A stretch of 59,947 bases of DNA, the filler included, from Dugesia japonica (lineage: Eukaryota), in assembly GCA_001938525.1 (NCBI GenBank). It is 5 parts of 5 records of this genome, joined end to end, with 100 filler letters (N's around TTAATTAATTAA, not from the genome) between each part and the next. Parts side by side here need not be neighbours in the genome. Positions count along the whole stretch, not along the records: positions 30,416 to 38,708 come from MQRL01632334.1; 4 more parts are not named here. One strand, written 5' to 3'. Positions 2,224 to 54,060 of this stretch are shown in pieces. A program made the position numbers and the translations under genes. Under the pieces are notes generated by a model. The model saw only the letters and a list, made by a program, of their open reading frames with translations. It was not told where the DNA came from and did not search any database. Position 1 is the first letter of the stretch. The number at the start of each line of letters is the position of its first letter.

Positions 2224-2625
2224 TATGAATATTAAAATTTTTTTAACTAATTAAGAAAAATTTCATCAACGAAAAAAATTATTATTAAAATTGTGAAAAC
2301 GTATTATATTCTTTTTTCCAAATGCAAAATTGAAACCATATTGAAAAAAGATAAGTAACTAAATAAAAGAGCAGAAGAATTCATAGGAGAAACATCATGT
2401 TGTATGATAATTGAGCTCCCGTCTAACTACATGTCTTATCTCTCGAGCTATTCTGTACCTCAAATCATCATTTCTCAATCTCTCGTTCCATCCGCAAAAC
2501 ATTGCTTCGTACTTTGATCTCATTTTTAAAAGTCTCTATTTTTAAAGTTTCAAAAAACCAATTTTAATATTATAAAAAAAATAAAGAAATCTCAGATATT
2601 TAAAATCCATGAATCGATACTCATA
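2224..2625 (-). repeat. Putative 3' LTR (~400 bp) of the Gypsy element
   Basis: On the minus strand a purine tract (AAAGAGATGGA) right after the integrase end is followed by TATGAGTAT; the distal end ATATTCATA is its near-perfect inverted complement. Confidence 0.55.
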
Positions 2626-5176
2626 TCCATCTCTTTACAATTTTTTTTAATTTTTTCCGCATTTCTTTCAATCATCTTGCCTTTTGATCTCTTCCGCAGG
2701 TATCGTCTGTCATGAATCTGTTTTATCAACTCTTAAGGATCTGTGTATCTTTCATTGGATTTTGATTTGTTTTCTGCCTTGATTAGAACCTCGTCTCCAA
2801 CTTGAAAATGTCTCTTTGTTTGTGTCAACTCTTCAGATTCTTCCTTCTTTTCTTCATTATTGAACCATCGTTCTCTATGTATCTTCTTATCGAAAATCAC
2901 TACTGCTGGAATTATGCCCAAAGTCTTCTGGCTTGCTGCATTTAAAGTATATTCGATTTCTGGTATTAACTCTGCCCGATTTTTATTCTTTTTATCTTTT
3001 AATGATGCATTGATGTAATCTCTAATCGTTCTGAATTGACGTTCTACTATTACGTTTGTATTATGAAGATATGGACTTGATAAAAATCGTTATATTCATT
3101 GAATCTGTCATCTTTTTGAAGGCTTTCGATTCGAACATCTTTTCACAATCTACATGTATCTCTTTTGGAGCATCCATTTATCCATAATCGTTTTCTTTAT
3201 TGATTCCTCATCTTGTTTAACTATGGCTGTTAAGCCTATACATTTGCTAAATTTATCTATCTTTTTCTTCCTATGGTTTCTTGGAATGGCCCACCAATAT
3301 CAATATAAATACTCTCAAATGGTTCATTAGCCTTTAATTTTGTAGTTTCCTCCTTTGTTCTAATTGTTGTAACTTTGTTCATTTGGCACGCTTTACATTC
3401 TTTAATTACTTTTGACATAGTTTCTCTTAAATCTTCCATATTATATTCGTTTTACAAATAATTTATGACTTTTTCCGTCCCTCCGTGCACCAATAAATTA
3501 TGCATTTTTTTTACCATTTGAATTTTCTTTTCTGAATGGATCAATATTTTGCCGTCTTTTGTTTTTATTGTTTCTTCTATTAATCGAAACTTTTTATATG
3601 TTCCATTTTTTATATCATTCTTTATCTGTTCAATTTTTTCTACGTTATTTTACCATTTATATGTATCTGAACCTGAAATACCATTAATTTTTCTTGTCTT
3701 TATTTTTTTTCTTTTGGATTCTAATGATCTGTTAAGCATTGTACACACTACTATAATTCATTCTCGACAGTATATTTGCATTCGTGTGTTTCGCACCTTG
3801 TCTAAATTCCAATAACATATCTAGGCTACTAAGAAAATTTATCCAAGTCTGAAATAGCGGAGTAATTGGCTTGTTTGTCTTTTTCATAAATCCTGTCGCC
3901 CTGTGATCTGTTCTCACCAAAAATCTTTTTCCATACAGATAATGTTTAAAATGGTTACAAAAATAGTAAATGGCCAATAATTCCTTTCTTCTTATACAAT
4001 ATCCCTTTTCATGAGCTGATATTACATGTGACCCATATGCAATGACTTGTTCTACACCTCTTCCATCTATTTGCGATAAAACTGATCCGATGGCATCAAA
4101 GTTCGCATCTGTATCTAGTACAAACATCTTTTTGATATCGGGAAAACTCAATATCGGTGCTTTTGTTAATGCCTCTTTCATCTCATTAAAAGCTTTATCA
4201 TAACTTTTCCACCACACAAGTTTTGTATTATTACTTCCGTATAGCTCTTCCAAGTTTCTAGCTTACTTTAAGTAATTATTGATAAACCGTCTATAGTAAT
4301 TACATATTCTCAAAAAGATTCTTAAGTCTTCACACATTTAGGTCTTCCGAAATTTTTATCCCTTCAATTTTTGTTAGATCGATTTGAACTCCATTCTTGT
4401 CTATGACATTTACTAAAAATTTGACTTCTGCTCACAATAAATGACATTTTTCCGGATTAATTCATATTCTTGATTCTTAAATTCTTTTAAAAACTTGGTC
4501 TAAAATTCTATAGTGCTGCTCTAAATTTTCTGAAAATATTAATATATCATCCATGTATACCATTGTTCCTCTCAATTTTCGTAATACTTTTGTCATTAAT
4601 TCTTGAAACGTTCCAGGTACTGTAGCTATATCAAAAGGCAATTTTGTGAAATAATACTGTTCATTCTTTGTAAAGAATGCTGTTTTCTCTTTATGTACCG
4701 GAACTTGATAATATGCATTACCCAAATCAATAGTACTAAAATATCTTGCACTACTCAAAGTGTCTAGTATTTCATCTACATATGGCATCAGAAATGCCTG
4801 TCTTTCTGTGATTGCATTCAGTTTTCTAAAATCTAATGCCTTTCCTTTCTTTTTTCCAAACACATATTAACGGAGTGTTCCATTGCGAATTACATTTCCT
4901 AATAATACCATTGACAAANAANTTCTTGATAGCTTCATCGATCTTATTTTCTAAATGCATTGGTTGTCTCCATGGTTTTGTATTTATTGTTTCTCCATTT
5001 GTGATTATTTGATGTACTGCCATTGTTGTTCTGCCAATATCCCAGTTGACTGCCATGAATATTCCTTTATGAATCATTATAACTTTCTCTAAATTCTCAT
5101 TTGGCTTGTTAATCAATGTTTTTATTGCTCTCTGTACTCTCTCTTCTATATTACAAATTTTATGCAGTAAAAACAT
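2224..5176 (-). mobile_element. Decayed Ty3/Gypsy LTR retrotransposon: pol (RT-RNaseH-INT) plus 3' LTR; gag missing
   Basis: Fragmented ORFs: RT (LDFRKLNAIT, YFSTIDLGNAYYQV, VYMDDILIFS), RNase H (FVLDTDANFDAIGSVLSQ, RTDH), integrase (CKACQ, EPFESIYIDIGGP) and C-terminal FQVGDEVLIK; many stops/frameshifts. Confidence 0.95.
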
Positions 5177-5199
5177 AATTCGATCGTCTTCTGAGAACT

Positions 5200-6930
5200 G
5201 GAATAATTCGCCCTAGCAACAGCGAGAGGGCCTCACTTCTTGTTGTCGTTAAAATCAAGATGGATCATAGAGATGGTGTGGAGACTACAGACAATTAAAT
5301 GAGCTAACCATACCAGACAAATACCGTTTACCTAGAATCCAATATCTATTGGATAAACTTGGGGGCTCTACCATCTTCTGCAAATTAGAACTTAAAAAAG
5401 CATTTTAATCAAATTCCGATAGCAGAAATGGCATGCACAAAACTTCGGTTATCACACCATTTGGTTTATTTGAATACTGTAGAATGCCGTTTTGGTTGAA
5501 GAATTTCTCAACTATTTTTCAAAGATTCATGAATACAATTCTGAGAGAGCATCAAGACTTTGCGATATCATACGTCGATGATATTCTAATATTTTCAAAA
5601 AACGAAGCAGATCATGAAGATTATGTACAAAAAGTAACCAACACCATTTATTCTATTGGGTTAGAGATCAATGCGGATAAGTTTATTTTTCGATTGCATT
5701 AAGTAGAATATTTAAGGTTTACAGATATGAGAGAATAAAATCCTTCCTAAAACTGAAACAATCGATAGCTTGAGAGAAATGAGCTTTCCAGCCAACTTAA
5801 AGACCTTGCAAAGATTTGTAGGCTGCGTTGCTTTTTTTTATTAGCTCATTCCAAATTTATCTGAAAAGATTGCACCACTTTACATGCTAATTATCGAAAA
5901 GAAGTATACTTGAATAGGCCAGTGATCAAGTAAATGCGTTCAATACTATAAGAGATGCACTTATGAATTTACAGCAATTGAATTATTCAGACAAGTCAGA
6001 ACAATTTGTGTTAAGAACTGATGCATCACTAGAAACCGTTAGTGGTTGCATTGGAACAAGTGAAATCAGAGAGAAAACATACTCCAATTACATTTTCTTG
6101 AAGAAAATTGCCTTCTGCAGAGAGAAATTACTCAACCTTCAACAGATATCTCCTAGCAGTAGTACTTGCAGTTAAAAATTTCAAGCACTACTTGGATTCT
6201 ATATTATTCGCAATACATACTGACCACCAGCCTTTATTAATGATTGCAATTATCAAAAATCCAAATCCTACACAATGGATATGGCTTGAATTCCTCGCTC
6301 AATTTTCCTTCAAATTAGAATATTTAAAGATATCGGAAAACACAGTAGCGGATTTTCTTTCAAGAATAAACGCGCTAGCAAGGAAGTTGAACACATAACA
6401 GTGGATGATATAATCAAACAGCAAACAATCGAGAACCTTCAAGCATCACTAAAAACATCTTCCTTGAAATTAAGTTTCGCTGAAGAAGGAATATTTATGG
6501 ACATATCGCAACCCAAACCGCGAATAATTCTACCACTCCGATCAATTCTAATTCTAATTCAATTTTAATTCTAATCACTCCGATTCAGAGAATTTAAAAG
6601 AATTCACAATAGCTGTCACGGTGAAGTAAAACCAACAACAACATTGATAGCTGAGAGGTATTTTTGGCCGAGAATGAGATCAGATATTCGTGAATGGTGA
6701 AGAAGTGAGAATTTCTAACGTTCAAAAATTTTCACGCATACTAAATCTCCACTAGCAACATTTTCTGACGCTGGTAGATTCAAATACTTACATGTTGACT
6801 TAGTAGGACCACTGCCAGAAATAAACAGCAAGCGATATCTATTGACGATGATTGACAGAAAACTGTCATGGATTGAAGCAGTGCCATGTTTAGAAATAAC
6901 ATCCGATTACGTGATTAACATATTATTAAT
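5200..6930 (+). mobile_element. Second, different Ty3/Gypsy pol remnant (CsRN1-like lineage), RT-RNaseH-partial integrase
   Basis: Manual translation: CGDYRQLNELTIPDKYRLPRI, TPFGLFEYCRMPF, YVDDILIFS, LRTDAS, AERNYSTF, TDHQPL, HVDLVGPLPEINSKRYLLTMIDR; frameshifted. Confidence 0.9.
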
Positions 6931-9329: not shown

Positions 9330-9520
9330 TTTTTGACTTGTAGTGTACTACTTTTGAGCAGTGGTGTACTACTTTTGACTGCTTATTTTGACTGCTATAC
9401 AATTTTGACCGATGGTATACTCTTTTTGACTGCTTATTAATTTTGGCTGATGGTGTACTATTTCTGACTGATGGTGTACTATTTTTGACTGATTAATTTG
9501 AATGCTTTACAATTTTGACT
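9330..9520. repeat. Degenerate ~20-bp tandem repeat
   Basis: Repeated units such as TTTTGACTGATGGTGTACTA / TTTTGACTGCTTA. Confidence 0.75.
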
Positions 9521-9659
9521 GGTAACTGCAGCTTTGCTAACGTATCTATGGATAAAATGGTAACCACAGCTCCACTGTGGTAAGATTGTGCCGCCTACAC
9601 AGCTCCGCTGTGGCATGTTCACACTGACTGGTACAGCAAAGCTGTGCTCAATTTTACTT

Positions 9660-10320
9660 ATGATCATTTCTAACATGCTTACAAAACCTAATGGCATACC
9701 ATTAAAACCCCTGAAACCATTTAAAATTTAATGTAACCAAGTTAATATGGGTATCGTTCAAACCGTTATAAAATGACAAACTTTTCTAACATGCTTACAA
9801 AACACTTATGATAGACCAATGAAAACCCTTGAAACTTTTAAAATCTTTTTAAATTTATTTTTATGCATTAAAATGGATATCGGTAAAATCGTAATGAGTT
9901 GGTGGATAGTTCTATCATGTTTACAAAACCTTATTATGAACTATTGAAGACTCTTTAAAATTTATTTTTATACATCAATATTGGTATCGTTCAGATTGTA
10001 ATGAGTTGATGAACATTTTTAGTATTATAAAACCTTATGAATAACCAATGAAAACCNTTGAAACTATTCAAGACCCTTTAAAATTTAATTTAATCAAGTC
10101 AATATGGACATCATTTGAATTGAAATATAATGAAAAACATTTCTAGTATTACGAAACTTTATTATTGACCAATGGAAATTCTTGAAATCATTCAAGACCC
10201 TTTAAAATTTATTGAAACCGAGTCGATATGAGTATCGTTCAAATCACAATGAGTTGAAGCACTTTTCTAGCATGCTTACAAAACCTTATGATGGACCAAT
10301 GAAAACCCTTGAAACTCTTT
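9660..10320. repeat. Minisatellite of about six ~105-130-bp units
   Basis: Recurring TTTCTA(A/G)CATGCTTACAAAACC...CCAATGAAAACCCTTGAAAC...TTTAAAATTT...TATCGTTCA near 9667, 9783, 9910, 10017, 10140, 10263. Confidence 0.85.
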
Positions 10321-10432
10321 ATTATTTGTTATTTGTTTGTTTGTTGTTGGGTCGTTTCTTTTATCTGATATAGTTTGTTGTCATTTTTGAATTGAAAATT
10401 TGTGTCTTGAAACTTGAATATACTCTTTTAAC

Positions 10433-10714
10433 TTAATAATTCGTCTGGATAGTTGATATTTCATTTTGTTTCTTTCTGTCTTTCGATTTTCTTTTCTTTG
10501 GAAACAACTTTGAAAAATTTTTGTTATTATTTTCAGATTTCTTTTCATAATTACAACCGGCTTTATCATATTCAATAGTCGAATTGTCATTCGTTTCCTC
10601 GAATCTTTGAACATTGGATCTTTTTGCTGTTTGACAAAATCGAAATATATGTATGGATTTGTTACAGTTTCTGTATACTAATGGCTTGTTACAATTTCGG
10701 ACAATATATCTCAA
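10433..10714 (-). pseudogene. Possible retroelement gag fragment with a degenerate CCHC zinc knuckle
   Basis: RNCNKPLVYRNCNKSIHIFRFC resembles Cx2Cx4Hx4C; followed by a charged tail. Confidence 0.4.
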
Positions 10715-10720
10715 TATCCA

Positions 10721-11140
10721 TTGCCTAGTAAGGATTGTTTCATGGTCTTATGTGATGTAACAAGTTTATTTACTAATGTTCTATTAAAAGAGACTGAAGA
10801 TTTTTGTAGTGAAATATGGGGTGAGTTTAATCATAATAAATCCTATTTAGATGATATAGCGTTTTGTTTTAATGATGAATGGTATAGACATGTTGATAAT
10901 ATGGTGATGGGATCCACATTAGTTCCAACATTAGCTTCTATTTTCTTCTCTAAATTAGAAAGAAAAATTAAAGATTATTCTTCTGGTAAGCCTTTAGTTT
11001 ATAAACGTTATGTTGATGACATTTTTCTTGTTTTTGAAAATCGCTCTCACGTGAATTCGTTTTTGGAGTATATGAATAAGTTGCATCCAAATATATGCTT
11101 TACGGTTGAAGACGAGATCAATTCAACTATTCACTTTGTC
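10721..11140 (+). mobile_element. Penelope-like element RT fragment
   Basis: DVTSLFTNV, FNDEWYRHVDNMVMGS, YKRYVDDIFLVF, LHPNICFTVEDE are PLE RT motifs. Confidence 0.9.
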
Positions 11141-11530
11141 AATTACACTTTCATTATTAAATTTAATAATTGAATTATTATTTTAAAATTCATCTTAATT
11201 AATTAAATTACTTATAAAACCATTTATTTTACAATCACTTTCATTTAAAATTACATCATTTAAACGATTACTAATAAGCTGTAACATTATTATCAAATAA
11301 GTTCATGTTATTTTTAATTTTACTTTCATCATTTAGTTTCAGCTTTGACATTTTTGTCTTTAATTTGAATTCACGTTTTGTTCAATAACATTGTCTAATT
11401 TTATTTTTAATTCATTTAACAATCATCTTGTACTCGTAACCATCATAATTAGTAATAAAACTTTTGAGAAACGTATCTTTACATTTCCCCCATGTATTAA
11501 ATTGTGCTTCTTTCAATTTATAATAAGCAT

Positions 11531-11630
11531 NNNNNNNNNNNNNNNNNNNNNNNNNNNNNNNNNNNNNNNNNNNNTTAATTAATTAANNNNNNNNNNNNNN
11601 NNNNNNNNNNNNNNNNNNNNNNNNNNNNNN
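11531..11630. other. Artificial contig-joining spacer
   Basis: 44 N + TTAATTAATTAA + 44 N; stop codons in all six frames; same spacer occurs four times. Confidence 0.95.
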
Positions 11631-30315: not shown

Positions 30316-30415
30316 NNNNNNNNNNNNNNNNNNNNNNNNNNNNNNNNNNNNNNNNNNNNTTAATTAATTAANNNNNNNNNNNNNNNNNNNNNNNNNNNNN
30401 NNNNNNNNNNNNNNN
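30316..30415. other. Artificial contig-joining spacer
   Basis: N44-TTAATTAATTAA-N44. Confidence 0.95.
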
Positions 30416-30613
30416 GTCTAGATGGAGCAATGGTGTATATGGATGGCATAATGATATTCTCAGAAAGACTAAAAGAACATTATATAACTCTGGGTCAGGT
30501 ATTAGATCGGATTCAAACGGCAGGGTTGCGAGTAAATCCAGAAAAATGTCACCTATTACGCAAAGAAGGGAAATTTCTTGGTCACATAATTAATAAAGGA
30601 ATTCGAACAGATC

Positions 30614-32610
30614 AATAGGTAGACAGTGGCACATGGGCACAATTTATTTTGGGAACAATTTTATAAATTACCCCCCCTTCTCTCCCTTGAGCTGCGTTTT
30701 TTTAGACAGATTTTTGTGATCTTTTTTTTCTAAGATTTTTTTAAAAATTTTTTTCATTAGATGAAATTTTTTTTTGATCATAAAAGTGTGTGTATTTTTA
30801 ATTTTTAAATTTTGTGTGTGTTTGGGTTGCTAGGGTGGATTTTAAAAAGTACGTCAAGTTGAGTTTGTGTGTGTGTAAGGTTGGAAAAAACGAGAAGGAG
30901 GAGCAGGAGATCTTGGAGATAATTTTTTTGTGGTTTTGAAGATTTGGTTGTGGTTGGACAAAATTTTGGTCTATATATTGTATAAAAGATTTATGAGTTT
31001 GGATGGATGGTTCGTCCTACAAGGGTAGTGGCACACGGGCACATGCGTATGAGTTATCGTCGGTAGTTTTTATGGAGGCTGTAGGTTGGTATGTAGTTGA
31101 TGAAATTTGTTGGTTGATGGTTTGTTGGAGAGATAATGTGGTGGGGAAGATGTTGGTTTTCGAATGTGCTTTGATTTTTTATTTTAAGGGCTACTTTTGA
31201 TTGGTTTATTTTGAAAGTAGTATAAGTGTGTTAAAAAATTTTTTTCGTGAGGTGGAGGTTGGTATGTGTGGAAAGATAATTAATTATCGGATTTTATAAG
31301 ACTTATTTGAAATTTTTCTGTCAGTGGTTATGACGTCATAATTTTTTGAAATCTTTTTTTTGTTTAAAAAGCTGTATTTTGCTTAAATTGATGAATTTAA
31401 TGAAAGTAATGGTATTTTTGAGTTTTTTTGTTGTCTTTTTGGTTATTTTTTCGGTATTTTGAACTGGGAAGGGTTGTTTTTTTAATATTTTCGAACGGGG
31501 AAGAGAGGAGTCTTGATATTTTTGAAAACCTTTTTGGTAGGAAATTTAAAAAATATTTTTATCGCGAGAAATTTAAAAAATATTTTTGGCAGGAAATTCA
31601 AAAATTTGTTTTTAGTAAGAAATTCAAAAAAAAATATTTTGGTTGGAAATTTTTCATTTCAATGGAGGAAATCTTTTAACTTTAATTAAATTTAATTTAA
31701 TTAATTTAATTTATTTATGTAAGAGATGTGGTAGTCTTGATATTTTGCATGCATAGTCTGTATATTTTGTATAAGATGGGCAGTTTTGATACTTTTTAAG
31801 ATATTATTACATTTTATCGAGCATCCTGGATATTTTTAAGATATTACAATAAATTTATGCATTGTATGGGTAGCCTTGATATTTTGCATGGTATGATCAG
31901 TCTTGAAATAATAAATGGGAAGCCACTATATTTACCTTGGGGAACCTCTATATTTATCATCTCAGTTGCATCTGAGCTGCATACCTATTGTATTTATTTA
32001 AAATATCAATAATAATTCCTAGGCATGCGATTTTTAATGTATGTGTGTTACATCTGAGTTGCATATCTATTGCATTTATTTAAAGAAATCAAAATGGCGG
32101 CTAGATTGAGTTTTAAAAAATCAAATTGGCGGGATTGTTGAGTTTTAAAAACTTATTTTTTGGTGAGAAGTTTATTAAAAATACTCAGAATTGTGATTTT
32201 CAGTGTAACTGTGTTGCATCTAAGTTGCAACTGAGTCACATACCCATTACATTTCATATTATAAAATTATCAGGCACATGATTTTCAGTATATGTGTGTT
32301 GCAGCTCTAATGCTTCTGAGTTGCGTTTATGAAAATATATCTATCAAATATATCTATCTATTGCATGATTCAATAATCAAATAAAAACCTTTCTATACAA
32401 TATGATAAAAACAGAACTTTTTTCATAAAAAAAGACATTAACTAGGTAATTTTCTATAAAACATATTAGTGATGCAATATTTAATAAAAAGTCTGATTAG
32501 TGTTGCAATTTTAAATAACAAATCTCATTAGCGATACCACGTTTAATAAAGTGTCTCATTAGTGTGGCAATCTTTAATAAAAAGTCTAATTAGCGATGCC
32601 ATGTCTAATA
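30614..32610 (+). repeat. Left terminal inverted repeat of the Maverick (inner boundary approximate)
   Basis: Colinear rc match to 35795-37593, e.g. GAAGGAGGAGCAGGAGATCTTGGAGAT / ATCTCCAAGATCTCCTGCTCCTCCTTC and CATTAACTAGGTAATTTT / AAAATTACCTAGTTAATG. Confidence 0.9.
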
Positions 32611-33179
32611 AAACACATATCGGTTGAGAACATTTCTGAGAAAGAAATTATAAAAAGCATGACATTTTTCATAAAATATCATAAATTCATGGAACCTTGC
32701 AAGACATATATACCTAATAAGACTATAAAAATTTCAAAGAAAATAATTTCATGATTGTAAAGGTTTATGAGTCTATGTTTTGCATAGTTACCTTGTATTA
32801 TTTAGATAGCAACAATGTATTTTAAAGATTATGAGTTTAATATTTACATAGGAAAAATGTATTTTAAAGATTATGAGTTTAATATTTATATATTAACCAT
32901 CAAATAAGATGAAACCATGCAAAATGGATGCATGCGTAATGCACAAAAGCATGCACAATACATGCTCGCATCATGTTCACGAGTAATTTAAATAACAAAT
33001 CATATAATTTTAAACAAATTAGATCCAATAATATAAATTAATAATAACCATTCATTTCCTTTAAAAAATATAATGACCAATAAAAACTAACAAATAACGA
33101 CTATGTATGTATCCAGCAAGTATATAAACATTAGCTTTAGTAAAATAGGTCACTTTTACATTTCAAAGTTGAAAACAAA

Positions 33180-33413
33180 ATGAACCAAATCGAAAGGGGA
33201 ATTAAACAAATTACAAATGCAATTACCAGTGGATCAGTTGAAAAAATGAATGAAGTTGAAATACAAATTAAAAAATCGACAGACGAAATTACCAGTGAAT
33301 CCGTTGACGAAATTCAATTAATAAGCAGGATCGACAATGGCCTATTGAGAAAACATGATTATGTTGAACTCATTGTCCATTCAATATTCATGGAGAAAAT
33401 TAAAAAGAATTAA
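33180..33413 (+). CDS. Small orphan ORF (77 aa) inside the Maverick
   Basis: TATATAAA at 33121, ATG in AAAAATG context, internal repeat ITSGSVE/ITSESVD, AATAAA just downstream. Confidence 0.5.
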   Translation: MNQIERGIKQITNAITSGSVEKMNEVEIQIKKSTDEITSESVDEIQLISRIDNGLLRKHDYVELIVHSIFMEKIKKN

Positions 33414-33974
33414 AGAGACAAAAGATAAATAAATTTCTTGCTGGTATTTTTTTTACATCTGTTGTGATATTTTATTTGTTTGGTCGAAATTAATGTTATT
33501 ATTATTTTGTTGTTTAATAAATAGATTTGAATAATAATTTTGTTTTTTTCTTACATTATGTATATAAAAATCTTATAAATAAAGTTTTTTTTTAACTAAA
33601 ATTGGTTTATGAGTGCATTATTTACATAATAACCGTGTATTATTGGGTTTTTTACATAATAATCATGTAATTATGTAAATGCATGCTATGTTCACGAAAT
33701 TAAAGAAATAATAAGAAATAATAGAGTACTTTTGTTTCTTAGTATTATTAAAAATGTAGACATTTTGATAATAAAACATATTTTTTAAAATACAAATATA
33801 TGCAAATAAATATTGCATGTGTAATGTTGCATATTTTATAGTTAACTACTATATAGTGTTCTCAACATAACTTTGTTGTATGAATATTGACGATTAAGGC
33901 ATTGTTTACTGAAATAAGATAATTTAAGTAACATTGATGTACCCCGTTCAATCTAAATAGAATTAAACAATAAA

Positions 33975-35304
33975 TTAAACAATAACTCTTACTTTNNNNN
34001 NNNNNNNNNNNNNNNNNNNNNNNNNNNNNNNNNNNNNNNNNNNNNNNNNNNNNNNNGAATTTCTTTTTCAAATACTCCATAAATGAGAACATATGCTGAT
34101 GTTGTTAAAGCTTTGGCAAACTTGATATCTGATCTCAAATTTCCTTGTTGAGGTAATTAACTCGGATTTATATCAAAATCTGGAGCAAGAACAAATGTAA
34201 AGAAGGGATAATTATCCATAAAATTTGGAAGTGTTATTCCAAAATTCATATTTTTATCCAAATAGCCCATATTTCGCACTATAGATTACATATATGTTGT
34301 GGCATAATTATCGTTTGTAAAATCCTCAGTATATATTTCTTGATAATTATTGTTTTTTGACAAGGAAACAGAAACAGCATCTAGTTTTTGAATTGTTGAA
34401 CTCGAGTTTTAATAACTATTATTATATTATTCATCACTTTGAAATGTAACCAAAATAAAGCTAGGTATTCGACTATCACTAAAGAATATAAAACGATGAA
34501 CTACCTTAACTAATTGCAAATGCAACAACTTCCTTGTTTCTTATTGGATAAACAGCATTTTGCTTTTTTAGTCCCAAGATGATGAGCAGGTAGTACTGAG
34601 GATTCAACTCGTACACGTCTTACCATTAATTTTGACTCTAGTAATACATATTTAGGTTCATTGGCTGTAGATTCCAAACAAATCTTAGAAGATGATCGTT
34701 TCAATCGAATATGAACATTGACACCAGGAATAAGGTANNNNNNNNNNNNNNNNNNNNNNNNNNNNNNNNNNNNNNNNNNNNNNNNNNTCGTTTCAATCGA
34801 ATATGAACATTGACACCAGGAATAAGGTATTTCGGTTGATCCATGAAATCAAGTTGCAATAATTCAAATAGTGATAATTGTTTTGATTTCGCAATACACT
34901 TTTTCTGTTTGCTTCTGATCCATATCCCATTGCTGCAAGACATATTCTTACTGTCACCATTATAATTTATTATAGTTTCAATTATTGGTTTATGACGATA
35001 AGATCCATTTCCACCTTCAATTTTGTAAATTATTAAACGAAAGAATTACATCCTTAAAAAGTGTATGCAACATATAGTTACTAGGAATCGCATAATTCTT
35101 ATCAACCACCTTTAATTTAATATACAATAAAGTATCATTGAAATCCAAATATTCAGTTTGTGATCCATTTATAAAAAACTCTACATCACTTTGTGATTCA
35201 GAAATTGAATTCATAGGAAAAACATCTTTGACTGTACTATTTTTAATTACAGCTTCTGGAGATGGTCGTTAAAAAATACATAATTCAGTTTTACCGCAAA
35301 TCAT
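33975..35304 (-). pseudogene. Maverick/Polinton major capsid protein (double jelly-roll, PY/hexon-like), disrupted
   Basis: CGKTEL, VEFFINGSQTEYLDFNDTLLYIKLKV, LHTLFKDV, QPKYLIPGVNVHIRLKRS, LMVRRVRV, FTFVLAPD, QGNLRSDIKFAKALTTSAYVLIYGVFEKEI follow the Maverick MCP (F54H12.2-like) motif order; stops and frameshifts present. Confidence 0.88.
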
Positions 35305-35376
35305 TTTTCAAATATTGATCCATGTGCTCTCATTGGTTTGTTTATACGTGATACATGAGATTTCTTTAGTTTTCTA

Positions 35377-35640
35377 CTATTTTGTGGTGTTTTGTCTTGA
35401 TAGCATATTAGTTATTTCAGATGGTATTTTATTAATTATACTTTGCAGTAATATACCTGCTACCTTTGGAATCATGCTGGTAACTCCACTAGGTACGGAA
35501 GAAACTACATTTCCAAGCTCAGCTAATGCATAAGATTTCAATGTGGGTAGTATTTTCCAATTTTGAGCCAGTACATCGTGAGCTGTTTTCATACCAAAAG
35601 AACCAATACGTTTAAGAATTGGCAAAGCAAATCTCCCTAT
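35377..35640 (-). pseudogene. 5'-truncated amphipathic virion-type ORF (adintovirus 'cupiennin'-like) upstream of the MCP
   Basis: IGRFALPILKRIGSFGMKTAHDVL resembles the FRxAxPLLK...DVL motif of the Maverick ORF that typically precedes the MCP. Confidence 0.6.
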
Positions 35641-35794
35641 CGTGATACTAGTGATATTTGGACTTAAAAATGTGTATTTTCAAGGATATGTGAATAATAT
35701 TACTTCAGATTCGTTTAATTTACTTGATTAAATTTAGAAAATTTGCAACACGTATGCAAAACGTTTACAAATCAAGTACAAAATATACCAATTT

Positions 35795-37593
35795 AGAAAT
35801 CGCAACACTAATGATACTTTTTATTAAAAATGGCAACACTAATGAGACATTTTATTAAAAATTGCATCGATAATGACATGTGTTATTTAAAATTACAACA
35901 TTAATAAGACTATTTATTATTAATTGCAACAATAATGATACTTTTAATTAAATATTGCATCACTTATAAGATTTTATAGAAAATTACCTAGTTAATGTTT
36001 TTTATGAAAAAAGTTATGTTTTTATCATATTGTAAAGAAAAGTTTTTTAAGAGATATATTTTCATAAATGCAACTGAAAGGCATTACAGCTACAACACAT
36101 ATACAATGAAAATCATGTGCCTGGGAAATTTTTATTAATAAATGCAATATGTATGCGACTCAGTTGCAACTCGAATGCAACGCATTTACACTAAAAATTA
36201 CAAGTATAAGTAATTTTAATAAATTTCTCACCAAAAAATAAGTTTTTAAAACTCAACATAGCTGCCATTTTGATTTTTTAAAATAAATACAATAGGTATG
36301 CAGCTCAGATGCAACTCAGATGCTAAATATGGAGGCTCCCCAAGTTAAATATAGTGGCTTCCCATTTAAAATTTCAAGGCTGCACATACCATGCAAAATA
36401 TCAATGCTACCCATACAATGCATAGATTTCTTGTAATAATACCATAAAAATATCAAGACTGTTCGATATCTTGTAATAGTATCTTAAAAAATAGAAAGAC
36501 AGACCATAACAGGCATAAATTTCTTGTAATAATATCTTAAAAAAATATAAAGACTGCTCAATATCATGTAATAATATCTTAAAAATATCAAAACTGCCCA
36601 TCTTATAAAAATATAGAGACTATGCATGCAAAATATCAAGACTACCACATATCTTACATAAATAAATTAATTTACTGAAATTTAATTGTAATAAAAAGAT
36701 TTCTTCTGTTGAAATGAAAATTTTCCAACCAAATATTTTTTTGAATTTTCCACAAAAAATATTTTTTTTAAAATTTCTAGCCAAAAATATTTTTTTAAAA
36801 TTTTCCACCAAAATTTTTTCAAAAATATCAAGACCCCCTCTTTCCCGTTCGAAAATATTAAAAAAAACAACCCTTCACAGTTCAAAATACCGAAAAAATA
36901 ACCAAAAATACTATTACTTTTAATAAATTCATCAATTTAAGCAAAATATAGCTTTTTAACCAAAATAAAGATTTCAAAAAATTATGACGTCAAATAAGTC
37001 TTATAAAATCCGATAATTAATTCTTTTTCGACATATACCAACCTCAACCTCACGAAAAATTTTTTTTAACACATTTATACTACTTAGAAAAATAAACCAA
37101 TCAAATAGTAGCCCTTAAAATAAAAAATCAAAGCACATTCAAAAACCAACATCTTCCCCATCACATTAGCTCTCCAACAAACTATCAACCAACAAATTTC
37201 ATCAACTACATAGACCAAATTTTTATCTAACCACTATCAAATCTTCAAAACCACAAAAAAATTATCTCCAAGATCTCCTGCTCCTCCTTCTCGTTTTTTC
37301 CAACCTTACACACAAAAATTCAACTTGACGTACTTTTTAAAAACCACCCTAGCAACCCAAACACACACAAAATTTAAAATTTAAAAATACACACACACTT
37401 TTATGATCAAAAAAAAATTTCATCCGATCAAAAATTTTTAAAAAAAATTTTAACCAAAAATCTTAGAAAAAAAACGAACACAAAAATCATGTCTAAAAAA
37501 CGCAGCTCAAGTTTTGTGTTTCCGAGCGCCCCTCTCTACACGGAGAAGGTGGTGATTTATAAAATTGTGCCCGTGTGCCACTATCTATCTACT
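35795..37593 (-). repeat. Right terminal inverted repeat of the Maverick (inner boundary approximate)
   Basis: rc of 30614-32610 with substitutions and indels. Confidence 0.9.
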
Positions 37594-38708
37594 CAGATCC
37601 AATCAAAATCGAAGCTATCAAAAATTTTGTGAACCCCAAATGCGTAAAAAACTTGAGAAGCTTCCTCGGAATATACAATTATTACAGAAGATTGATCAAT
37701 AATTATTCAAAGAAATCAAGAGCCATAGAAGAATTTTATGGAAGCAACATCACGAAGCTAATATGGTCAGATGGATGTGATAAAGCTTTCGAAGACATGA
37801 AATCACCTATTTTAGAATTCCCTGATATAAAGAAGACATTTATTTTAGATACTGGCGCTGGTTTCCACGCAATAGGAGCGATTCTATCACAAAATGATGA
37901 CGACAGAGGAGAAGTGATTACTTACGGCTCACATGCAATGACATCACATGATAAGGGCTACTATAACACATGGAAGGAATTACTAGCAATCTACTACTTC
38001 TGCAACCACATTTAACATTATTTATTTGGAAAAAAATTCATAACGAGAACAGATCACAAAGCCATCATATTCATAAAACGACGAACAAACCGATAACACC
38101 TCAATTCCAAACATGGATGAATTACCTTAGCAGCTTAGACATGGAACTAATATATAGACAAGGCGAAAAACACAAACGCAGATATGCTCTCAAGAATGAA
38201 ATGCGTAACATGTAATCAATGTCACAAGCAACATGAAAATCCATAGTGGTAAGACATTTGAATCAAAAAACTTTAAGAATCTGATAGAATCGAATATAGA
38301 AATACAATTTTCAAGTACTTACCATCACAATACAAACGGAATTATAAAGATACAATTCCGCATAATTAGAGACTGCATTAACCCAGCCGCAGAGGAAGAT
38401 AGAAGAAATGATTGAAGTAACATGATACCGGAAATTGAATACATGATGAATGTGACAAGACCAAACACATTTGAGATATCACAAGCAGAAAAAAATATAA
38501 AACTCTTTTTAAAAGTATTACTCTATTATGTATACAAAATAACAAATCTCTCACAACTTACCTAGTTTTAAAGAATTATTTTTATTTGAAAATATTTTCT
38601 ATCACTTGGTTCTATCGCAGCTAAATTGTCACCCACACTATGTTGAAACAAACTATCAACTTGCAAACTAAAAACACCAATTGAATGCAATGCAGTGCCT
38701 CTAGTGGT

Positions 38709-38808
38709 NNNNNNNNNNNNNNNNNNNNNNNNNNNNNNNNNNNNNNNNNNNNTTAATTAATTAANNNNNNNNNNNNNNNNNNNNNNNNNNNNNNNNNNNN
38801 NNNNNNNN
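38709..38808. other. Artificial contig-joining spacer
   Basis: N44-TTAATTAATTAA-N44. Confidence 0.95.
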
Positions 38809-42910: not shown

Positions 42911-43125
42911 TATGAGTATGTTTTAAACGAGTTGAAATTTTTGTGTAGTTGGTGATCGTTTTTCTTGAAATCTTTTTTGAAAAAAATTTAAATTGAAATG
43001 AAGGATTAAATGACAATTAAGTAAATGTTTTAAATTATGAAATTAAATTTTAATAAGTAAACAGAAAATTTATTTTAAAATCTGATTAAAAAATCAAATG
43101 ACTAATAAGTAATTATTTTAAATTC
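42911..43125 (+). repeat. Truncated 5' LTR
   Basis: Direct repeat of 45585-45800 (AGTATGTTTTAA...GATCGTTTTTCTTGAAATC...AAATCAAATGACTAAT). Confidence 0.85.
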
Positions 43126-45584
43126 TAGAAATTAACAAAGATCATAGATTGACTGCGATTATTCAGAATAATAAGAATGTATTTATGCGGATAAATATGA
43201 CATTGGATGCCCACACTTAACGAAGCATCTAATGATCACTAAAGGAGGACCAATCAACTTAAAACCGTATCGCCAACCAATGAATCTAGAGGAAAAAATT
43301 GAAGAGACCATCAAGCATCTAAATAATAATGGTATCATCCGGAAGTTTTATTTACAATGGAATACGCCATCAATCTGTGTTTGAAAAATGGGAAAAAAGG
43401 ATATGCGATTATGTTTAGACTTTAGACAGCTCAATGCAATAACAGATAGACAAGATTTTCATATGCCAAATGTAGACGAAATGCTAGATGTTTTGGAAGG
43501 TGCGCAGTATTTTAGCTCAATAGACTTGGGAAATACATACTACCAAGTGGAACTCAGTGAAGATTCTCAAGAAAAGACAGCTTTTTCGACCAAACAAGGG
43601 TAATTTTGTTTCAATCGAATGCCTTTTGGAATTGCAGCAGCATCAGGCACGTTCGTGGAAACGATGAATAAATTAATCGAAAAAATAAAAGGAGCGATGG
43701 TTTATTTAGATGATATTCTCATTTTTACCGAAACAAAGGAGCAATTCTTTGAAATAATCAATAAAGTATTAACAGAAATTAAGAAGGCTGGTCTTAGAGT
43801 TAATACGGAGAAATTTCAATTCATGCGAAAGAAGATCAATTTCTTGGGACACGTTATCAGTGAGGAAGATGTCAAAACAGATCCAACTAAAATAGAAGCA
43901 ATTAAGAACTTTGGTAAACCAAACTGCGTTAAGAAGATGAGAAGCTTTTTAGGAATTTTCAATTACTACCGAAAGTTTATTAAAGATTATTCAAAGAAAG
44001 CTAGGTTACTGGAACAGCTGTGTAGGGGCCAAGTAACAAGAAAATTGAATGGACGAATGAATTAGAAAACGTTTTACATGGAATGAAAGAACCACTAACG
44101 ATGTCTTCAATATTATGTTTTCCAGATATAAATAGAAAATTTACTTTGGACACGGATGCGAGTTTCGATACGATTGGAGCAGTACTATCTCAAAAGGACC
44201 ACAATAGGCAAGAAAGAGTAATTGCATATGAGTCACACGCAATAACGAGCCATGAGAAAGGATATTATACTACGCGGAAAGAATTACTCGCAATTTACTA
44301 CTTTTTTATTCATTTCAAGCATTACTTATATGGGAAGAGATTTATCCTCAGAACTGACCATCACTTTTATGCAAAATTCCAAGAAGCTGATTACATCACA
44401 GTTCCAAACCTGTATTAATTATTTGAGCAGTTAAGATATAAAATTGGAATATAGAAAAAGATCGTTTCATAGAAATGATGATATGTTGTCAAAGAATGAA
44501 TGCAGTACATGTACACAATGTCTAATGTCACATGAGGATCCCAAAAGTGGAAAATTAAAAAGAAGAATATTAAATACAGTAGATATTCAAGAAAATCAAG
44601 GCAATTTTGGAGAAAATGATGAAGGAACATGGATACTTGATTATAAAATAAAAGAAGTTATAATGAGGATACACCATCTTTTGTGTCATACTGGAGCAGA
44701 AAAAGTAGCGGCGTATATGAAGGATAAATAAAACACGAAACATTTGTGGAGCAAAGTACAAGAGGTTGAGCAAAGTTATATAACATGCCAGAAAGCTAAA
44801 GTGTTGACAACAAAAACGAAGGAAGAAACAAAAAAGACGCAGCCAGCCGAAATGTTTGAGTTGTTTTTTATAGATGTGTGTGAACCACTGCCGGAGACAA
44901 GAGGTCTGAAAAAATATGTTCACAGTATAATATACCAATGCAGTAAGTATGTAGCCATGATAGCAATGACAAAACAAGATGAAGATACCATACGGAAAGC
45001 AATATTGGAGAAGTGGATATTGAAGTTCGGGTGTCCGAGAGAAATTCGAGTTGGTTGTGGAAAAGCTTTTAAGTCTGAATCAATGAAAGATTTTGCAGAT
45101 GATCATGGCATTACCCTCGGGTTTTTGAGTCTATATCATCATAACACAAATGGACAAATCAAGAGACAGTTTAGAACTATGTGGGATCTGATTAATGCAA
45201 CACTTAAAGAAAGGAAAACCTCAGATTGGGTGGATGTATTGCCAGAGATAGAATTTACCTTAAACGCTACAAAACAGAAAACTATCGGGAAAAGCCCTGC
45301 TGAAATCGTCTTTGGAAGAAAATAAGCAGAGGAAAAAGTTATGAAACCAATACTCAAAGAGTGCACAAAGAACAAGAGGAAGAAATATTAACCAAAAGAC
45401 AATTTGAGATTGGTGATGAGGTCTTAGTGAAAGCTGAAACAAGAAACAAGAACCAAGCTCGTTATAAAAGACCCTATAAGATCAAGAGAAAGATTCATGA
45501 CAGACGTTACATCCTGAAAGATACAAACGGAAAAAGTCTTGAAAGAAACATAGAGAAAATCAAAAAATTTCTTAAAAAGAGAGA

Positions 45585-45995
45585 TGTCAGTATGTTTTAA
45601 GCAAGTTGAAAATTTTTGTGTGGTTGATGATCGTTTTTCTTGAAATCTTTTTTGAAAAAATTTAGATTTAAATGAAAATCTAAATGACTCATAATTAATT
45701 GTTTTAAATTTTGAAATTAAATTTTAATAAGTAAACAGAAAATTTATTTTAAAAATCTTTTAAAAAAAATCAAATGACTAATTAGTAATTGTTTTAATTC
45801 TGAAATTAAATTTTAACAAATAGATTGAAAATTTATTTTAAAAATCTTAATAAAAAATCAAATGACTTTAAATCGATTTTAAAAAAATCTTAAGAAACGA
45901 TCACCAATTTAAAACAGAAATTTAATTTGTTTNAAAACTCAATTAGTGTTGTGTTGGGTTTTTAGGATTTGGTGTTTTTATTTTGTATCGACACA
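45585..45995 (+). repeat. 3' LTR (~410 bp; right end approximate)
   Basis: Follows purine tract AAAAAGAGAGA; starts TGTCAG, candidate end TCGACACA. Confidence 0.75.
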
Positions 45996-49333: not shown

Positions 49334-49433
49334 NNNNNNNNNNNNNNNNNNNNNNNNNNNNNNNNNNNNNNNNNNNNTTAATTAATTAANNNNNNNNNNN
49401 NNNNNNNNNNNNNNNNNNNNNNNNNNNNNNNNN
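49334..49433. other. Artificial contig-joining spacer
   Basis: N44-TTAATTAATTAA-N44. Confidence 0.95.
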
Positions 49434-49739
49434 CTAACAATAACGATAAGGACAATCATAACTAAGGAGCCTAATTTTTATTAGTAATCATAATGATTAT
49501 AATAATAGCAATAATAATGATAATATTAGTGATGATATTGAATACAATGTTAGTAGTATAAGTGCTTCCAACAGGTATAATAAAGGCTAATAAAACTAAA
49601 TGGGAGCGATAATATTAAGTGAAGATTCTGAATGAAAATGTGCTATAATATAATATGAATAATGAAAGTGAATACCAGACTAGAGTTTATAATATTTGGT
49701 TTCTAAAAACTTATTGAAAGTGGTAATACTAAATGATAA

Positions 49740-50770
49740 ATATTATATAGAAGTCGTAAAAGAATAATTGTAATAATAATAACATGGGCCGTAGTCAAAT
49801 TCTATATCCTAAAGTTTTCATTTTAATAAAATTGAAAATTTTATTATATTTATCATTAATAAAAAAAATCGTTTAACTAAATTTTAATGACACAATTCAT
49901 ACAAATAATAACAGAATAATAATAAATAAAAATATTTCTTACTGCTAAAATAAATAAAAGANTACTACGGGAGCACAAGAATTTGATGAATCGTCGATAG
50001 ATAGATTGAATAAATAAGATCTTGATTTGGAGCTGCTTTGAGAATCTTCTGTGAGAATGGTATGAGATTTCGGAGATAGTGGCTGAAAATTGGATCGAAC
50101 TGTTAAGAATTGCAACGATTTATCGTATATCAAAAACTTAGAAAATTGGAATTAAAATGATATTCTGGAGAGCGAGTATTTATAGTGAATTTCTCGTTGA
50201 TAATTATCACGAAATCTATTGAATTGACAACCGCTTCCTGTCTGGATTTGAGATTCTTCTCGAGTAAGTGTGAAGATTTCTTAATTTGTTTACTGATTAC
50301 TTCTAGATAATTGAAGCCGCAATTTGATGGACTTGAGCTGGCGAATTCCAATTGTCAAAAGATTGACAAATTTGGGAGTTTGGTAATATGATGAAAATAA
50401 TTTCTTTAAAATTTTATTATGGTAATTTCCAGCAAATCTTGAAATTGAAATTTTCTTGTAAGTACAATTTTTTCTGAATTTTGGTTGATTTTCACTTGAG
50501 TTTTTAGATCGCAATCTGAGTTTGATGGGTAATATCAAGTCAAATGACAGGATTTATTAGGTTAAGTTTTGTCTATTTTTGAGCCCTTTTTATAGTAAAT
50601 TTTATTAAGATTTATTTTCCATTGGCTGTTTTTGGTCGAAAATTCATACAATTTTCTCACAATTTGCTACACATTCTGGAAAAATAGGTAGTATTTTTTG
50701 TATAACTTAAATATTTGTGGATTAATTTATTTTCTTTTATAGGATATATTTGGTTTAATTCGCTCTCAGA
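49740..50770 (-). promoter_or_regulatory. Repeated promoter/leader-exon cassette, copy A
   Basis: Minus-strand CCAAT (50621), CTATAAAAAGGG (50584-50595), CTATAAATACTC (50174-50185) and donor GCA|GTAAG (49942); colinear with copy B. Confidence 0.65.
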
Positions 50771-52493: not shown

Positions 52494-52969
52494 GCTTAAT
52501 CTGGAACTCATTATTCATTAATGAAATATTTGGTGACGATATATTTTGGTGTTGTTGTGGAGCTGATTTATAGTGAACCTATAAATAAGTTATAGTGATA
52601 GTAACAGTATCAGTGCTGCAATCAAGAAATGAATCAATAACACTAAATTTTCTGAATATGCATCATTCTATAAAGTCATCAGTAGGGGTAATTACATCTT
52701 GATTCTACGAATATTAGCAACGTTTCGGTAAAGAATACTAATTAAATGGTAAATTTAATAACTTATAAAAATTGATAGTTTTATGAGTAATATTGATAGA
52801 ATATTACAAGGATAATAAATAATTAACGACAATTATAGTAACTAATAATAACACTAACGACCCTAAAATTCAACTATTTATCATAATGGTAATAGGGATA
52901 AGTGATGATGGTATTCTGGAATAATTATTTAATAATAAGCATTGAGATTATCAAGGATATTAACGATAG

Positions 52970-54060
52970 TTATTATATAGAAGTCGTAATAGAATAATAG
53001 TAGTAATAATAACATGGGTCCAATTCTATATCCTATGATTTTACCATTTTCATTTTAATAAATTGAAATTTTTATTCTATTTTTTATATTTATCATTAAT
53101 CAATAAGTAAAGAAAAAATCATTTTACTAAATTTTTAATGATACAAATCATAATAATTAATAACAAGTAATAATAACAAATAAAAATATTTCTTACTGCT
53201 AAATAAATAAAGAATCACTACGGGTGCACAGGAATTGGTCGATTGACGAGAGATGGATTGAATTGATGGAACTGCTATAGAATTAGAAACGATTGATGAG
53301 AGTGATAGAATTTTCTTGAGGGCTTTTGTGATTGATTTTCACGACTGAGAGATAGTCGAATTTATTCCCAAAAGATATTTCGTAAAATTGTCTATTTGCT
53401 TGCTGTTTGTTACTCTGGAAAAGCGAGTATTTATAGAAAATTTGCCGTCGATAATTCTCGTGGTTGTCTATTGAACTGACAGCCGCTTCTTGTCCTGATC
53501 TGCTGTTCTTCTCGAGTAATTATGTTGAATTCCTAAAAAATTTGATCTGATTTCTTTTAGATAATGAAACCGCAATTTGATGGCCTTCATTTAGAGAATT
53601 CCAACTGTCAAACGATTGTCAATTTTGGGAATCAACGTAGATGGTTAAGATAATTTCTTTAAAAATTTAATGTGTTTTAGAAAGAAATCTAAATCTTAAT
53701 TATTGCTCTGATTGCTCAGAATGAATTGGAAATTTCTTCGCAAGTGAGTTTTTTCTTGAAATTGAAATTGTTTTTGAATATTTGTAGATTTGCTATGATT
53801 AAGTAGATAATAAAAAACGCGGATTGTTGTCTCAAGCTAAACGAGATTCATAAGGGTAAGTTTTGTCTATTTTTTAGGCCCTTTTATAGTAATTTTTTTT
53901 CAAATCGATTTTTNATTGGTTGTTTTTGGTCAAAATTCAGATTGATTTTCGTGTAAATCACTGATTTTCCCAGGTAATTTTATTTATTTATTAATTATTT
54001 TCTCAATTTTGTAATTAATTTTCTTTTTATTTTCAGAATATGTTTGTTTAATCGATTTTA
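52970..54060 (-). promoter_or_regulatory. Repeated promoter/leader-exon cassette, copy B, upstream of the TRAF-like gene
   Basis: Same motif order as copy A (CCAAT 53915, TATA ~53889 and ~53436, donor 53196); candidate acceptor TTCCAG at 52501 lies 7 nt before the ATG at 52493. Confidence 0.65.

Follow-up and report, generated by a model that had tools for sequence, protein, structure and literature searches.

Does the 6,980-bp Maverick (Polinton) element that interrupts a Gypsy retrotransposon in the Dugesia japonica DNA analysed here (a stretch of 59,947 nucleotides, hereafter the window) represent a capsid-only mini-Maverick that has kept its virion genes, as the original prediction held, or a once complete copy that has lost part of its length? 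The element is shorter than the 13-25 kb of autonomous Mavericks/Polintons, and its Maverick ends and TSD enclose a pseudogenised subset of the core genes, as found in a defective deleted copy (Table 1). We conclude that it is a real, dead, internally deleted Maverick copy from which about half the length is gone, most likely in one deletion, and that it appears to be an ordinary genomic fossil and not a new capsid-only satellite.

Table 1. Features of the element and its insertion site (positions along the window).
Feature	Position	Strand	Details
Maverick/Polinton element	30614..37593		6,980 bp; flanked by perfect CAGATC TSD
TSD CAGATC, left copy	30608..30613	+	single copy in paralogous Gypsy at 43878
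TSD CAGATC, right copy	37594..37599	+	
Host Gypsy/Ty3 reverse transcriptase, 5' of insertion	30418..30613	+	Pfam RVT_1, E 7.7e-11
Left TIR	30614..32613	+	2,000 bp; non-coding; internal 26-32-bp tandem repeats; starts AATAGG
118-bp segment, left TIR only	30972..31089	+	second exact copy of subterminal motif (18/18)
Broken 112-codon accessory gene (earlier 'orphan')	33180..33514	+	one frame change, one stop
Possible adenain-type maturation protease remnant (His-motif stretch)	33817..33897	-	weak tblastn match
61-N assembly gap	33996..34056	.	covers last ~10 MCP codons
Pseudogenised MCP (PY/hexon), predicted double jelly-roll	34058..35304	-	residues 1-396 of 406-aa homolog
50-N gap	34738..34787	.	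inside MCP; 42 bp duplicated on both sides
PW / cupiennin-like gene	35304..35643	-	lacks first 32-33 codons; one frame change near 3' end
Deletion junction	35643..35644	.	gap-free DNA; putative ~8 kb loss (penton, integrase, ATPase, pPolB)
Right TIR	35820..37593	-	1,774 bp; end = AGTAGATAG on minus strand
Host Gypsy continuation: RT thumb, RNase H, integrase fragment	37596..38490	+	Pfam RT_RNaseH_2, E 5.5e-17

The element splits a Gypsy reverse-transcriptase frame whose flanks remain in register and rejoin as an in-frame Gypsy RT, and the paralogous Gypsy carries one CAGATC at the codon matching the insertion site, which rules out a chance duplication and upholds the perfect TSD that had been predicted. 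The downstream part of the host Gypsy is itself decayed and internally deleted, with part of its integrase missing, and a nearby LTR pair about as diverged (88%) encloses just ~2.9 kb, without room for gag; large internal deletions are frequent near the element. An Rfam search gave 0 matches.

The two TIRs, of ~2.0 and ~1.8 kb and over half of the element as foreseen, together make up 54% of it. That they are old shows in their alignment, where 1466 of 1619 columns are identical (~90.5%, with 33 gaps), corresponding to a divergence of 5% per arm, and identity drops inward from 93-94.5% in the outer 600 columns to 83-92.5% further in. Maverick end motifs are of (AGT)2 or (AG)3 type in the available text of PMC8097293; the right end reads AGTAGA and the left AATAGG, with 4 of the first 25 bases differing, so that the termini, described beforehand as intact and AGT-type, are not both so, and the left one is probably a mutated AGT-type end. 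Both TIRs exceed the 100-1,500 bp commonly quoted for Mavericks/Polintons as well as the 46-1,447 bp that the same portion of PMC8097293 gives for vertebrate Mavericks. Such a length would suit a copy-back defective genome, where the left end was copied late, in inverted form, onto PW to give the right TIR, and where a 2-kb TIR would not be native. We hold this to be the least probable of the readings considered, since TIRs of ~2 kb exist in butterfly polintons (10.1101/2025.02.07.637071, as far as the available text describes them), the ~150 bp that separate the deletion junction from the right TIR are unmatched on the left side, and this, like the inward fall in identity, is expected of a native TIR flanked by subterminal DNA of its own.

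Between the TIRs, the decayed MCP was correctly anticipated and carries 6 stops, 5 frame changes and one 8-codon deletion. It is ~67% identical to intact 406-aa relatives (66-73% to the homolog P0004, by piece) and 29-48% identical to the MCP of L001, an intact Maverick relative. The structural model of P0004 (pLDDT 84.9) matches the MCPs of SGIV, PBCV-1 and mavirus with E 6e-17 to 1e-13, which agrees with the double jelly-roll capsid of the original prediction, the fold being predicted for the homolog rather than for the element's own copy. A tree of the C-terminal piece of the MCP places the element among P0004-P0016-type relatives, its sister lacking strong support, and a PDB sequence search with the same piece gave just 2 chance matches. 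Pfam found 0 families in the six whole frames of the interior, an uninformative result because it misses intact MCP homologs too (0 of 3 exceed the cut-off).

The adjoining cupiennin-like gene, PW, is truncated as had been proposed: it is cut sharply at codon 34, through its conserved N-terminus, and 7 of 7 homologs begin matching at residue 33 or 34 (position 35643), defining a single sharp junction, identical for all seven, in gap-free DNA. What had been taken for an orphan ORF is a 112-codon gene interrupted by a frameshift, whose homolog P0042 is intact (E 6.6e-28; tblastn identity 77% over 82 aa and 65% over 37 aa), and the orphan label was dropped. No Pfam family exceeded the cut-off for this accessory gene, neither the ORF nor its homolog had a usable match in the Atlas, and the TBP-like and 159-aa accessory proteins of L001 did not match the element's spacer.

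The absence of a protease, also part of the original prediction, is now uncertain. The only interior match to the L001 protease is weak (tblastn, 37% over 27 aa, E 0.45; shuffle controls 41/400 and 11/400) and lies 163 nt from the MCP anchor, compared with 146 nt in L001. A His-motif pattern, picked after seeing the sequence, is unique in the window and arose in 6 of 3000 shuffles. The trace is possibly a protease remnant, placed where relatives carry their protease. The 100-aa candidate had 0 matches by phmmer among 1.84 billion representatives, 0 Pfam families and 2 chance PDB matches, while open-frame length in the spacer was not above that of shuffles (112-200/1000) and a comparison of the L001 protease with phage records found nothing.

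Searches by tblastn with L001 proteins confirm that the interior has no detectable pPolB (best E 0.83), packaging ATPase (0.67) or penton (0.78 with the L001 query and 0.33 with another), and that no rve integrase is matched there by either the L001 or the L002 INT, of which the latter did detect Gypsy integrases elsewhere in the window. Only ~1.2 kb of the interior is without assignment, and the interior leaves no room for pPolB. In L001 the four missing genes (pPolB, ATPase, integrase and penton) are all placed upstream of PW, so that one ~8 kb deletion accounts for their loss: PW codon 34 is 8,264 bp from the pPolB stop in that contig, and 6,980 + 8,264 gives 15.2 kb, a normal Maverick size (12.7-24.6 kb for the vertebrate Mavericks in the available text of PMC8097293). 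The retained block, comprising the 3' part of PW, the MCP, the possible protease trace and one accessory gene, is the contiguous distal end of the L001 gene array, and L002 shares the L001 order of INT, mCP, PW and MCP. The intact close homolog that served as query shares just 47% identity with the MCP of L001, and in vertebrate Mavericks pPolB, ATPase and PZ lie beyond the protease (PMC8097293, same portion), an order that, if applicable, would need two deletions.

Two assembly gaps within the element, of 61 N and 50 N, had not been recorded previously. The latter is a contig-overlap artefact, with the same 42 bp on either side, and the idea that it hides genes was dismissed. The former bears on whether the true element is longer, several kb being hidden or mis-joined at the 3' end of the MCP: the assembly is a draft with many gaps, and this one sits at the point beyond which vertebrate Mavericks carry protease, PZ, ATPase and pPolB, judging from the accessible part of PMC8097293. 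We consider such an artefact improbable, given that the PW junction lies in gap-free DNA, so that at least integrase and penton are truly gone, that 61 is not among the stock gap sizes of the window (50; 44+12+44), and that the distance separating the MCP and the protease-like motif, on either side of the gap, is near that of L001.

Decay of the retained genes bears on both selection and timing. Changes affect 5 of 63 invariant and 15 of 115 at-least-90% conserved MCP columns (8-13%), against 11% expected from the TIR divergence of 5% per arm, so that MCP decay is roughly consistent with the TIR clock and retention of the capsid under selection is unsupported; selection was dismissed, as these columns changed about as neutral decay since insertion predicts. 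A functional satellite whose virion genes are selected to supply or alter the capsids of a helper Maverick would fit the full-length MCP with its adjoining PW and perhaps a protease trace, and Repbase Polinton-N1A_NV is reported to have an MCP (PMC11296320, available text). It is nonetheless highly improbable, considering that PW has lost part of its conserved N-terminus, that the penton and ATPase required for virions are gone, that all genes are broken and that the retained block is what one deletion leaves.

The 6 MCP stops, in turn, exceed the number predicted by the TIR clock, which is 2.4-3.9 for the whole TIR (P 0.04-0.19) and 1.7-2.6 for its outer 600 columns (P 0.007-0.05), a mild hint that decay is older than insertion. 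Such a slight excess, together with the larger number of lesions in the element's genes (~14 in 623 codons) than in the older host Gypsy (~5 in 352), would suit a deletion in the donor or during replication, after which a full-length helper with shared TIRs would have supplied pPolB and integrase to copy and integrate the 7-kb form in trans, giving a non-autonomous Polinton family with passenger genes. The element still has its two TIRs and the TSD, and going by the mechanism of the family a helper would need nothing more; precedents exist in TIR-flanked polintons without polB that are reported to have stayed active and gone on amplifying (10.1101/2025.02.07.637071) and in Repbase Polinton-1N1_DR (PMC9341505) and Polinton-N1A_NV (PMC11296320), each as presented in the available text. 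The conserved-column decay, however, fits the whole-TIR clock, the host Gypsy does not have significantly fewer lesions (p 0.16-0.32, three neighbouring tallies tried), and, as weak evidence, no other copy of the element or TIR fragment was found in the 60-kb window. A single copy cannot order deletion relative to insertion; we judge deletion after insertion to be probable and this earlier deletion with transfer in trans to be unlikely, if the most serious of the alternatives. Somewhat less likely again is an extinct Maverick family that depended on a helper and had unusually long non-coding TIRs (54% of the element). The 7-kb form would be one of its copies, still bearing the MCP block when it was replicated and integrated in trans, and perhaps also packaged by helper capsids, as a defective-interfering-like or satellite form of an animal Polinton.

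The probable history is therefore one of insertion of an autonomous Maverick into Gypsy, a single ~8 kb deletion in place and then neutral decay. The insertion and its 6-bp TSD are evident in the sequence; the inserted element would have been an autonomous one of ~15 kb with native 1.8-2.0-kb TIRs, placed in the RT gene of a Gypsy older than itself, presumably by its rve integrase, as known for the family. One ~8 kb deletion, starting at PW codon 34 and ending about 180 bp within the far TIR, would then have removed penton, integrase, ATPase and pPolB together, if their order was that of L001, most likely in place by host repair or replication slippage, and the remainder would have decayed neutrally. 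All three retained genes (MCP, PW and accessory) are broken and no intact protein is encoded; with one terminus also mutated, the copy is inactive today. Maverick origin, a double jelly-roll capsid and the loss of replication, integration and packaging genes are all supported, but the notion of a capsid-only mini-Maverick keeping virion genes is not, every gene of its distal-end block being broken, and of the two origins first offered a one-off deletion fits best.

A single decayed copy is of little weight, as most Maverick loci are fossils, and polB-less Polintons, non-autonomous Polintons and 2-kb TIRs all have precedent. The non-coding TIRs of 1.8-2.0 kb do exceed the usual published range, and surveys requiring pPolB and integrase miss TIR-bounded remnants of this sort. 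If many insertions were to share the junction, they would provide a clean genomic test of Maverick polymerase and integrase acting in trans, and genomic evidence that pPolB and integrase do so on TIRs alone. Polinton-1N1_DR and Polinton-N1A_NV, in whose names we take the 'N' to stand for non-autonomous, are presumably shortened Polinton derivatives like this element, and multi-copy families. The MCP of Polinton-N1A_NV is of another lineage, separate from the mavpol MCPs (PMC11296320, available text). In the literature searched, most subscription papers being outside reach, no Maverick derivative with exactly this gene set is described.

Among known systems, the Pieris polintons without polB (Pannagram, 10.1101/2025.02.07.637071, available text) resemble the element in their TIR flanks and lost polB, and ~2 kb TIRs occur in that study, which raises the question of action in trans and leaves it open. 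They are recent and multi-copy with LINE or Gypsy cargo, whereas the element is one old copy with no cargo that also lacks integrase, ATPase and penton, and the 2-kb TIRs of that study encode hexon and adenain, unlike the non-coding ones here. The virion module of Beta-class adintoviruses (Starrett et al. 2021, PMC8502044, available text) likewise pairs a cupiennin-like gene with hexon, and degraded endogenised copies are described; the likeness is one of described gene content only, and neither GasderminX nor PolB was seen in the element. Degraded Mavericks, 96% of vertebrate Maverick loci in the accessible part of Barreat and Katzourakis 2021 (PMC8097293), are alike in their 6-bp TSD, AGT-type end, TIRs and PW followed by MCP, with stops and frameshifts throughout. 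The element differs from them in its longer, non-coding TIRs and in missing half its length though both ends and the TSD survive, and since that survey demanded INT and pPolB, a copy like this one would go uncounted. Finally, the Maverick contig L001 (JANOGQ010000345.1, from a bacterial MAG) and relatives P0004-P0033 belong to the same MCP family; L001 differs in its intact pPolB, ATPase, INT, penton and protease and in its accessory genes (TBP-like and 159-aa ORF, against the 112-aa gene here), and it carries PW immediately upstream of MCP, as does the element.

The 6,980-bp element lies between two copies of CAGATC in a single host gene: 65 codons of the left flank encode a Gypsy reverse transcriptase (RT; Pfam RVT_1, E 7.7e-11), the right-flank frame runs on into RNase H (Pfam, E 5.5e-17), and the two join in register across the repeated hexamer. 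As, moreover, a paralogous Gypsy at 43878 carries only one CAGATC, at the same codon, the duplication is a genuine target-site duplication (TSD), as originally predicted. The terminal inverted repeats (TIRs) together make up 54% of the element, in line with the proposal that they account for over half of it. They are old: their alignment contains 33 gaps and matches in 1466 of 1619 columns, with 93-94.5% identity in the outer 600 columns and 83-92.5% in the inner blocks; a copy-back origin of so long a TIR is the least credible explanation weighed here. Both termini had been described as intact, which is true only of the right end (AGTAGATAG), because the left end (AATAGGTAG) differs at 4 of 25 bases. 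One segment occurs in the left TIR alone and is bounded by short similar words, which suggest that the right TIR lost it by deletion. Large internal deletions are common near the element; the second Gypsy is also internally deleted, its LTR span of only ~2.9 kb leaving no room for gag.

Coordinates of features along the window
Feature	Position	Observation
Decayed Gypsy RT/RNase H fragments	2617-6400; 10682-11170	Both strands, with another RT fragment
21-bp arrays	9331-10342	Nested with ~124-bp tandem arrays, resembling subterminal repeats of a DNA transposon
Artificial scaffold joins, size unknown	11531-11630; 30316-30415; 38709-38808; 49334-49433	Paired 44 N flanking 12 bases; one sits outside the element, 200 bp to its left
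All-frame stop linker	30360-30371	The 12 bases of one join
Left TIR	30614-32613	
Left-TIR-only segment	30972-31089	Carries the subterminal motif again, as an exact copy
Stretch common to two interior spacers	32762-32802; 33604-33644	41 bp, 80% identity
Accessory gene	33180-33514	Frameshifted copy of P0042
Protease-like match	33897-33817	
MCP pseudogene	35304 to 34058	Covered by P0004 residues 1-396
PW junction	35643/35644	
Right TIR	35820-37593	
Second Gypsy	42915-45809	LTR pair 88% identical; RT, RNase H, integrase
Direct repeat, possibly an old LTR pair	49732-50646; 52962-53939	~0.9 kb, 68-77% identity, 3.2 kb apart

Of 245 candidates for the C-terminal piece of the major capsid protein (MCP) gene, 30 proteins of 343-423 aa matched, the best at 68% identity, and homolog P0004 (406 aa) follows it at 66-73% identity per piece through 6 stops and 5 frame changes (four directly aligned; one short third-frame stretch counts as two of the five). 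A structure model of P0004 (pLDDT 84.9), built from 29 of the 30 homologs with the 343-aa partial P0017 excluded, matches the major capsid proteins of iridovirus, PBCV-1, mavirus and Sputnik (E 6e-17 to 5e-13), so that this close homolog identifies the predicted decayed MCP as a double-jelly-roll capsid pseudogene. The ORF upstream, expected to be truncated, matched 7 of 11 candidate proteins at 64-80% identity, in 7/7 only from residue 33 or 34, and the edge is a sharp junction in gap-free DNA beyond which its 5' part is gone. Its position matches PW of Mavericks, which we take to be the 'cupiennin' gene; Pfam gave this ORF no family name. The supposed orphan ORF does have a homolog, P0042 (112 aa; one protein among one candidate), with no function found for either in Pfam and Atlas searches; the encoded sequence has a basic stretch near its C-terminus, followed by a hydrophobic one at the end. 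The 41-bp spacer repeat, possibly a promoter-like cassette, argues that the spacer after MCP is partly non-coding.

A scan of GTDB genomes yielded 2 relatives among 65 pattern matches: L001, a near-complete 12.7-kb Maverick contig in a Lysobacterales MAG (JANOGQ010000345.1), and L002, a partial one in a Planktothrix MAG (DMPJ01000072.1), both most likely eukaryotic virus DNA mis-binned into bacterial MAGs. L001 reads pPolB (opposite strand), ATPase, small ORF, integrase, penton, PW, MCP, protease and two accessory ORFs, where Pfam identifies the ATPase, integrase and protease, and pPolB and penton are presumed from size, position and motifs; L002 reads integrase, penton-like ORFs, PW, MCP. The L001 pPolB contains a weak endonuclease VII match (E 4e-4), and a TBP-like ORF follows the protease (Pfam TBP, E 2.2e-10). 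Against the interior, the pPolB, ATPase, integrase and penton proteins gave no match or best E 0.33-0.83, and no more than 1,220 bp, besides 61 N, lacks assignment, upholding the predicted absence of these genes; matches of two small L001 ORFs (E 0.015 and 0.027, strand opposite MCP) were taken as chance. The L001 protease has its sole interior match (37% over 27 aa, E 0.45) on a stretch just beyond MCP that we had marked, before this comparison, as a His-motif look-alike, 163 nt from the MCP anchor here versus 146 nt in L001. Shuffling reached its score in 41/400 trials for the near region; a higher score over the full spacer, reached in 11/400, belongs to a different stretch; sequence, Pfam and PDB libraries left the piece unrecognised. 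A protease remnant is a little better than even on this sequence match, weak but well placed, so the absence of a protease is unproven; whatever its outcome, 'capsid-only' is inexact.

In L001, all genes missing here sit upstream of PW codon 34 and span 8,264 bp, which added to 6,980 bp gives a reconstructed 15.2 kb. One deletion would be enough under this gene order; the vertebrate Maverick order would require two. Two gaps interrupt the element in this repeat-filled, AT-rich draft assembly: 50 N with 42 bp repeated either side, a contig-overlap artefact, and 61 N across the MCP 3' end; that a gap hides more sequence is improbable. What the sequence shows directly is where the element inserted, its TSD and TIRs, the identity of its genes, the junction and the lesions. 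The likeliest history, with moderate confidence, is that a ~15-kb autonomous Maverick, whose size and gene order we infer, integrated, lost ~8 kb in place by a single deletion of inferred cause and time, and then decayed neutrally.

From a TIR divergence of ~5% per arm, ~11% of amino acids are expected to have changed and 372 codons to have gained 2.4-3.9 stops (range from AT bias); the 6 MCP stops have P 0.04-0.19 on this whole-TIR clock and P 0.007-0.05 on the outer-TIR clock (7-8% change, 1.7-2.6 stops). MCP has changed at 5/63 invariant and 15/115 at-least-90%-conserved columns, intact homologs differing by a mean of 1.6% at invariant ones, and the element genes carry ~14 lesions in 623 codons versus ~5 in 352 for the older host Gypsy (p 0.16-0.32, three neighbouring tallies). 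By MCP change against the TIR clock and these tallies, the capsid was probably near-intact around insertion and decayed thereafter without selection, with a mild hint of MCP decay somewhat longer than the TIR clock; a functional capsid satellite is highly improbable. These figures do not order deletion relative to insertion, and deletion first, followed by mobilisation in trans, is a possible but clearly less probable course than deletion in place.

The element is real and clearly delimited; it is a Maverick, a known kind of element, that has undergone internal deletion and decay, and it behaves like a dead copy; no host genes were recognised by Pfam in 44 ORFs of the window. It is rejected as an autonomous Maverick on pPolB, integrase, ATPase, penton and size, and cannot be filed in a non-autonomous family from one copy; that it represents a family relying on a helper and marked by very long non-coding TIRs is doubtful. 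Kapitonov and Jurka reportedly described non-autonomous Polinton families in 2006. A literature search, with most subscription papers outside it, found no derivative with exactly this gene set; PMC8502044, PMC10748475, PMC11296320, PMC9341505, PMC5499653, PMC3014272, PMC6431247, 10.1101/2024.01.15.575659 and 10.1101/2021.04.08.439009 served for further comparison. In PMC8097293, 96% of vertebrate Maverick loci are degraded and TIRs span 46-1,447 bp, compared with 2,000 and 1,774 bp here; 10.1101/2025.02.07.637071 describes 2-kb coding TIRs and active polintons without polB. In PMC4028283, MCP, protease and ATPase were lost together in 9/72 Polintons; our element is the reverse case, with MCP kept.
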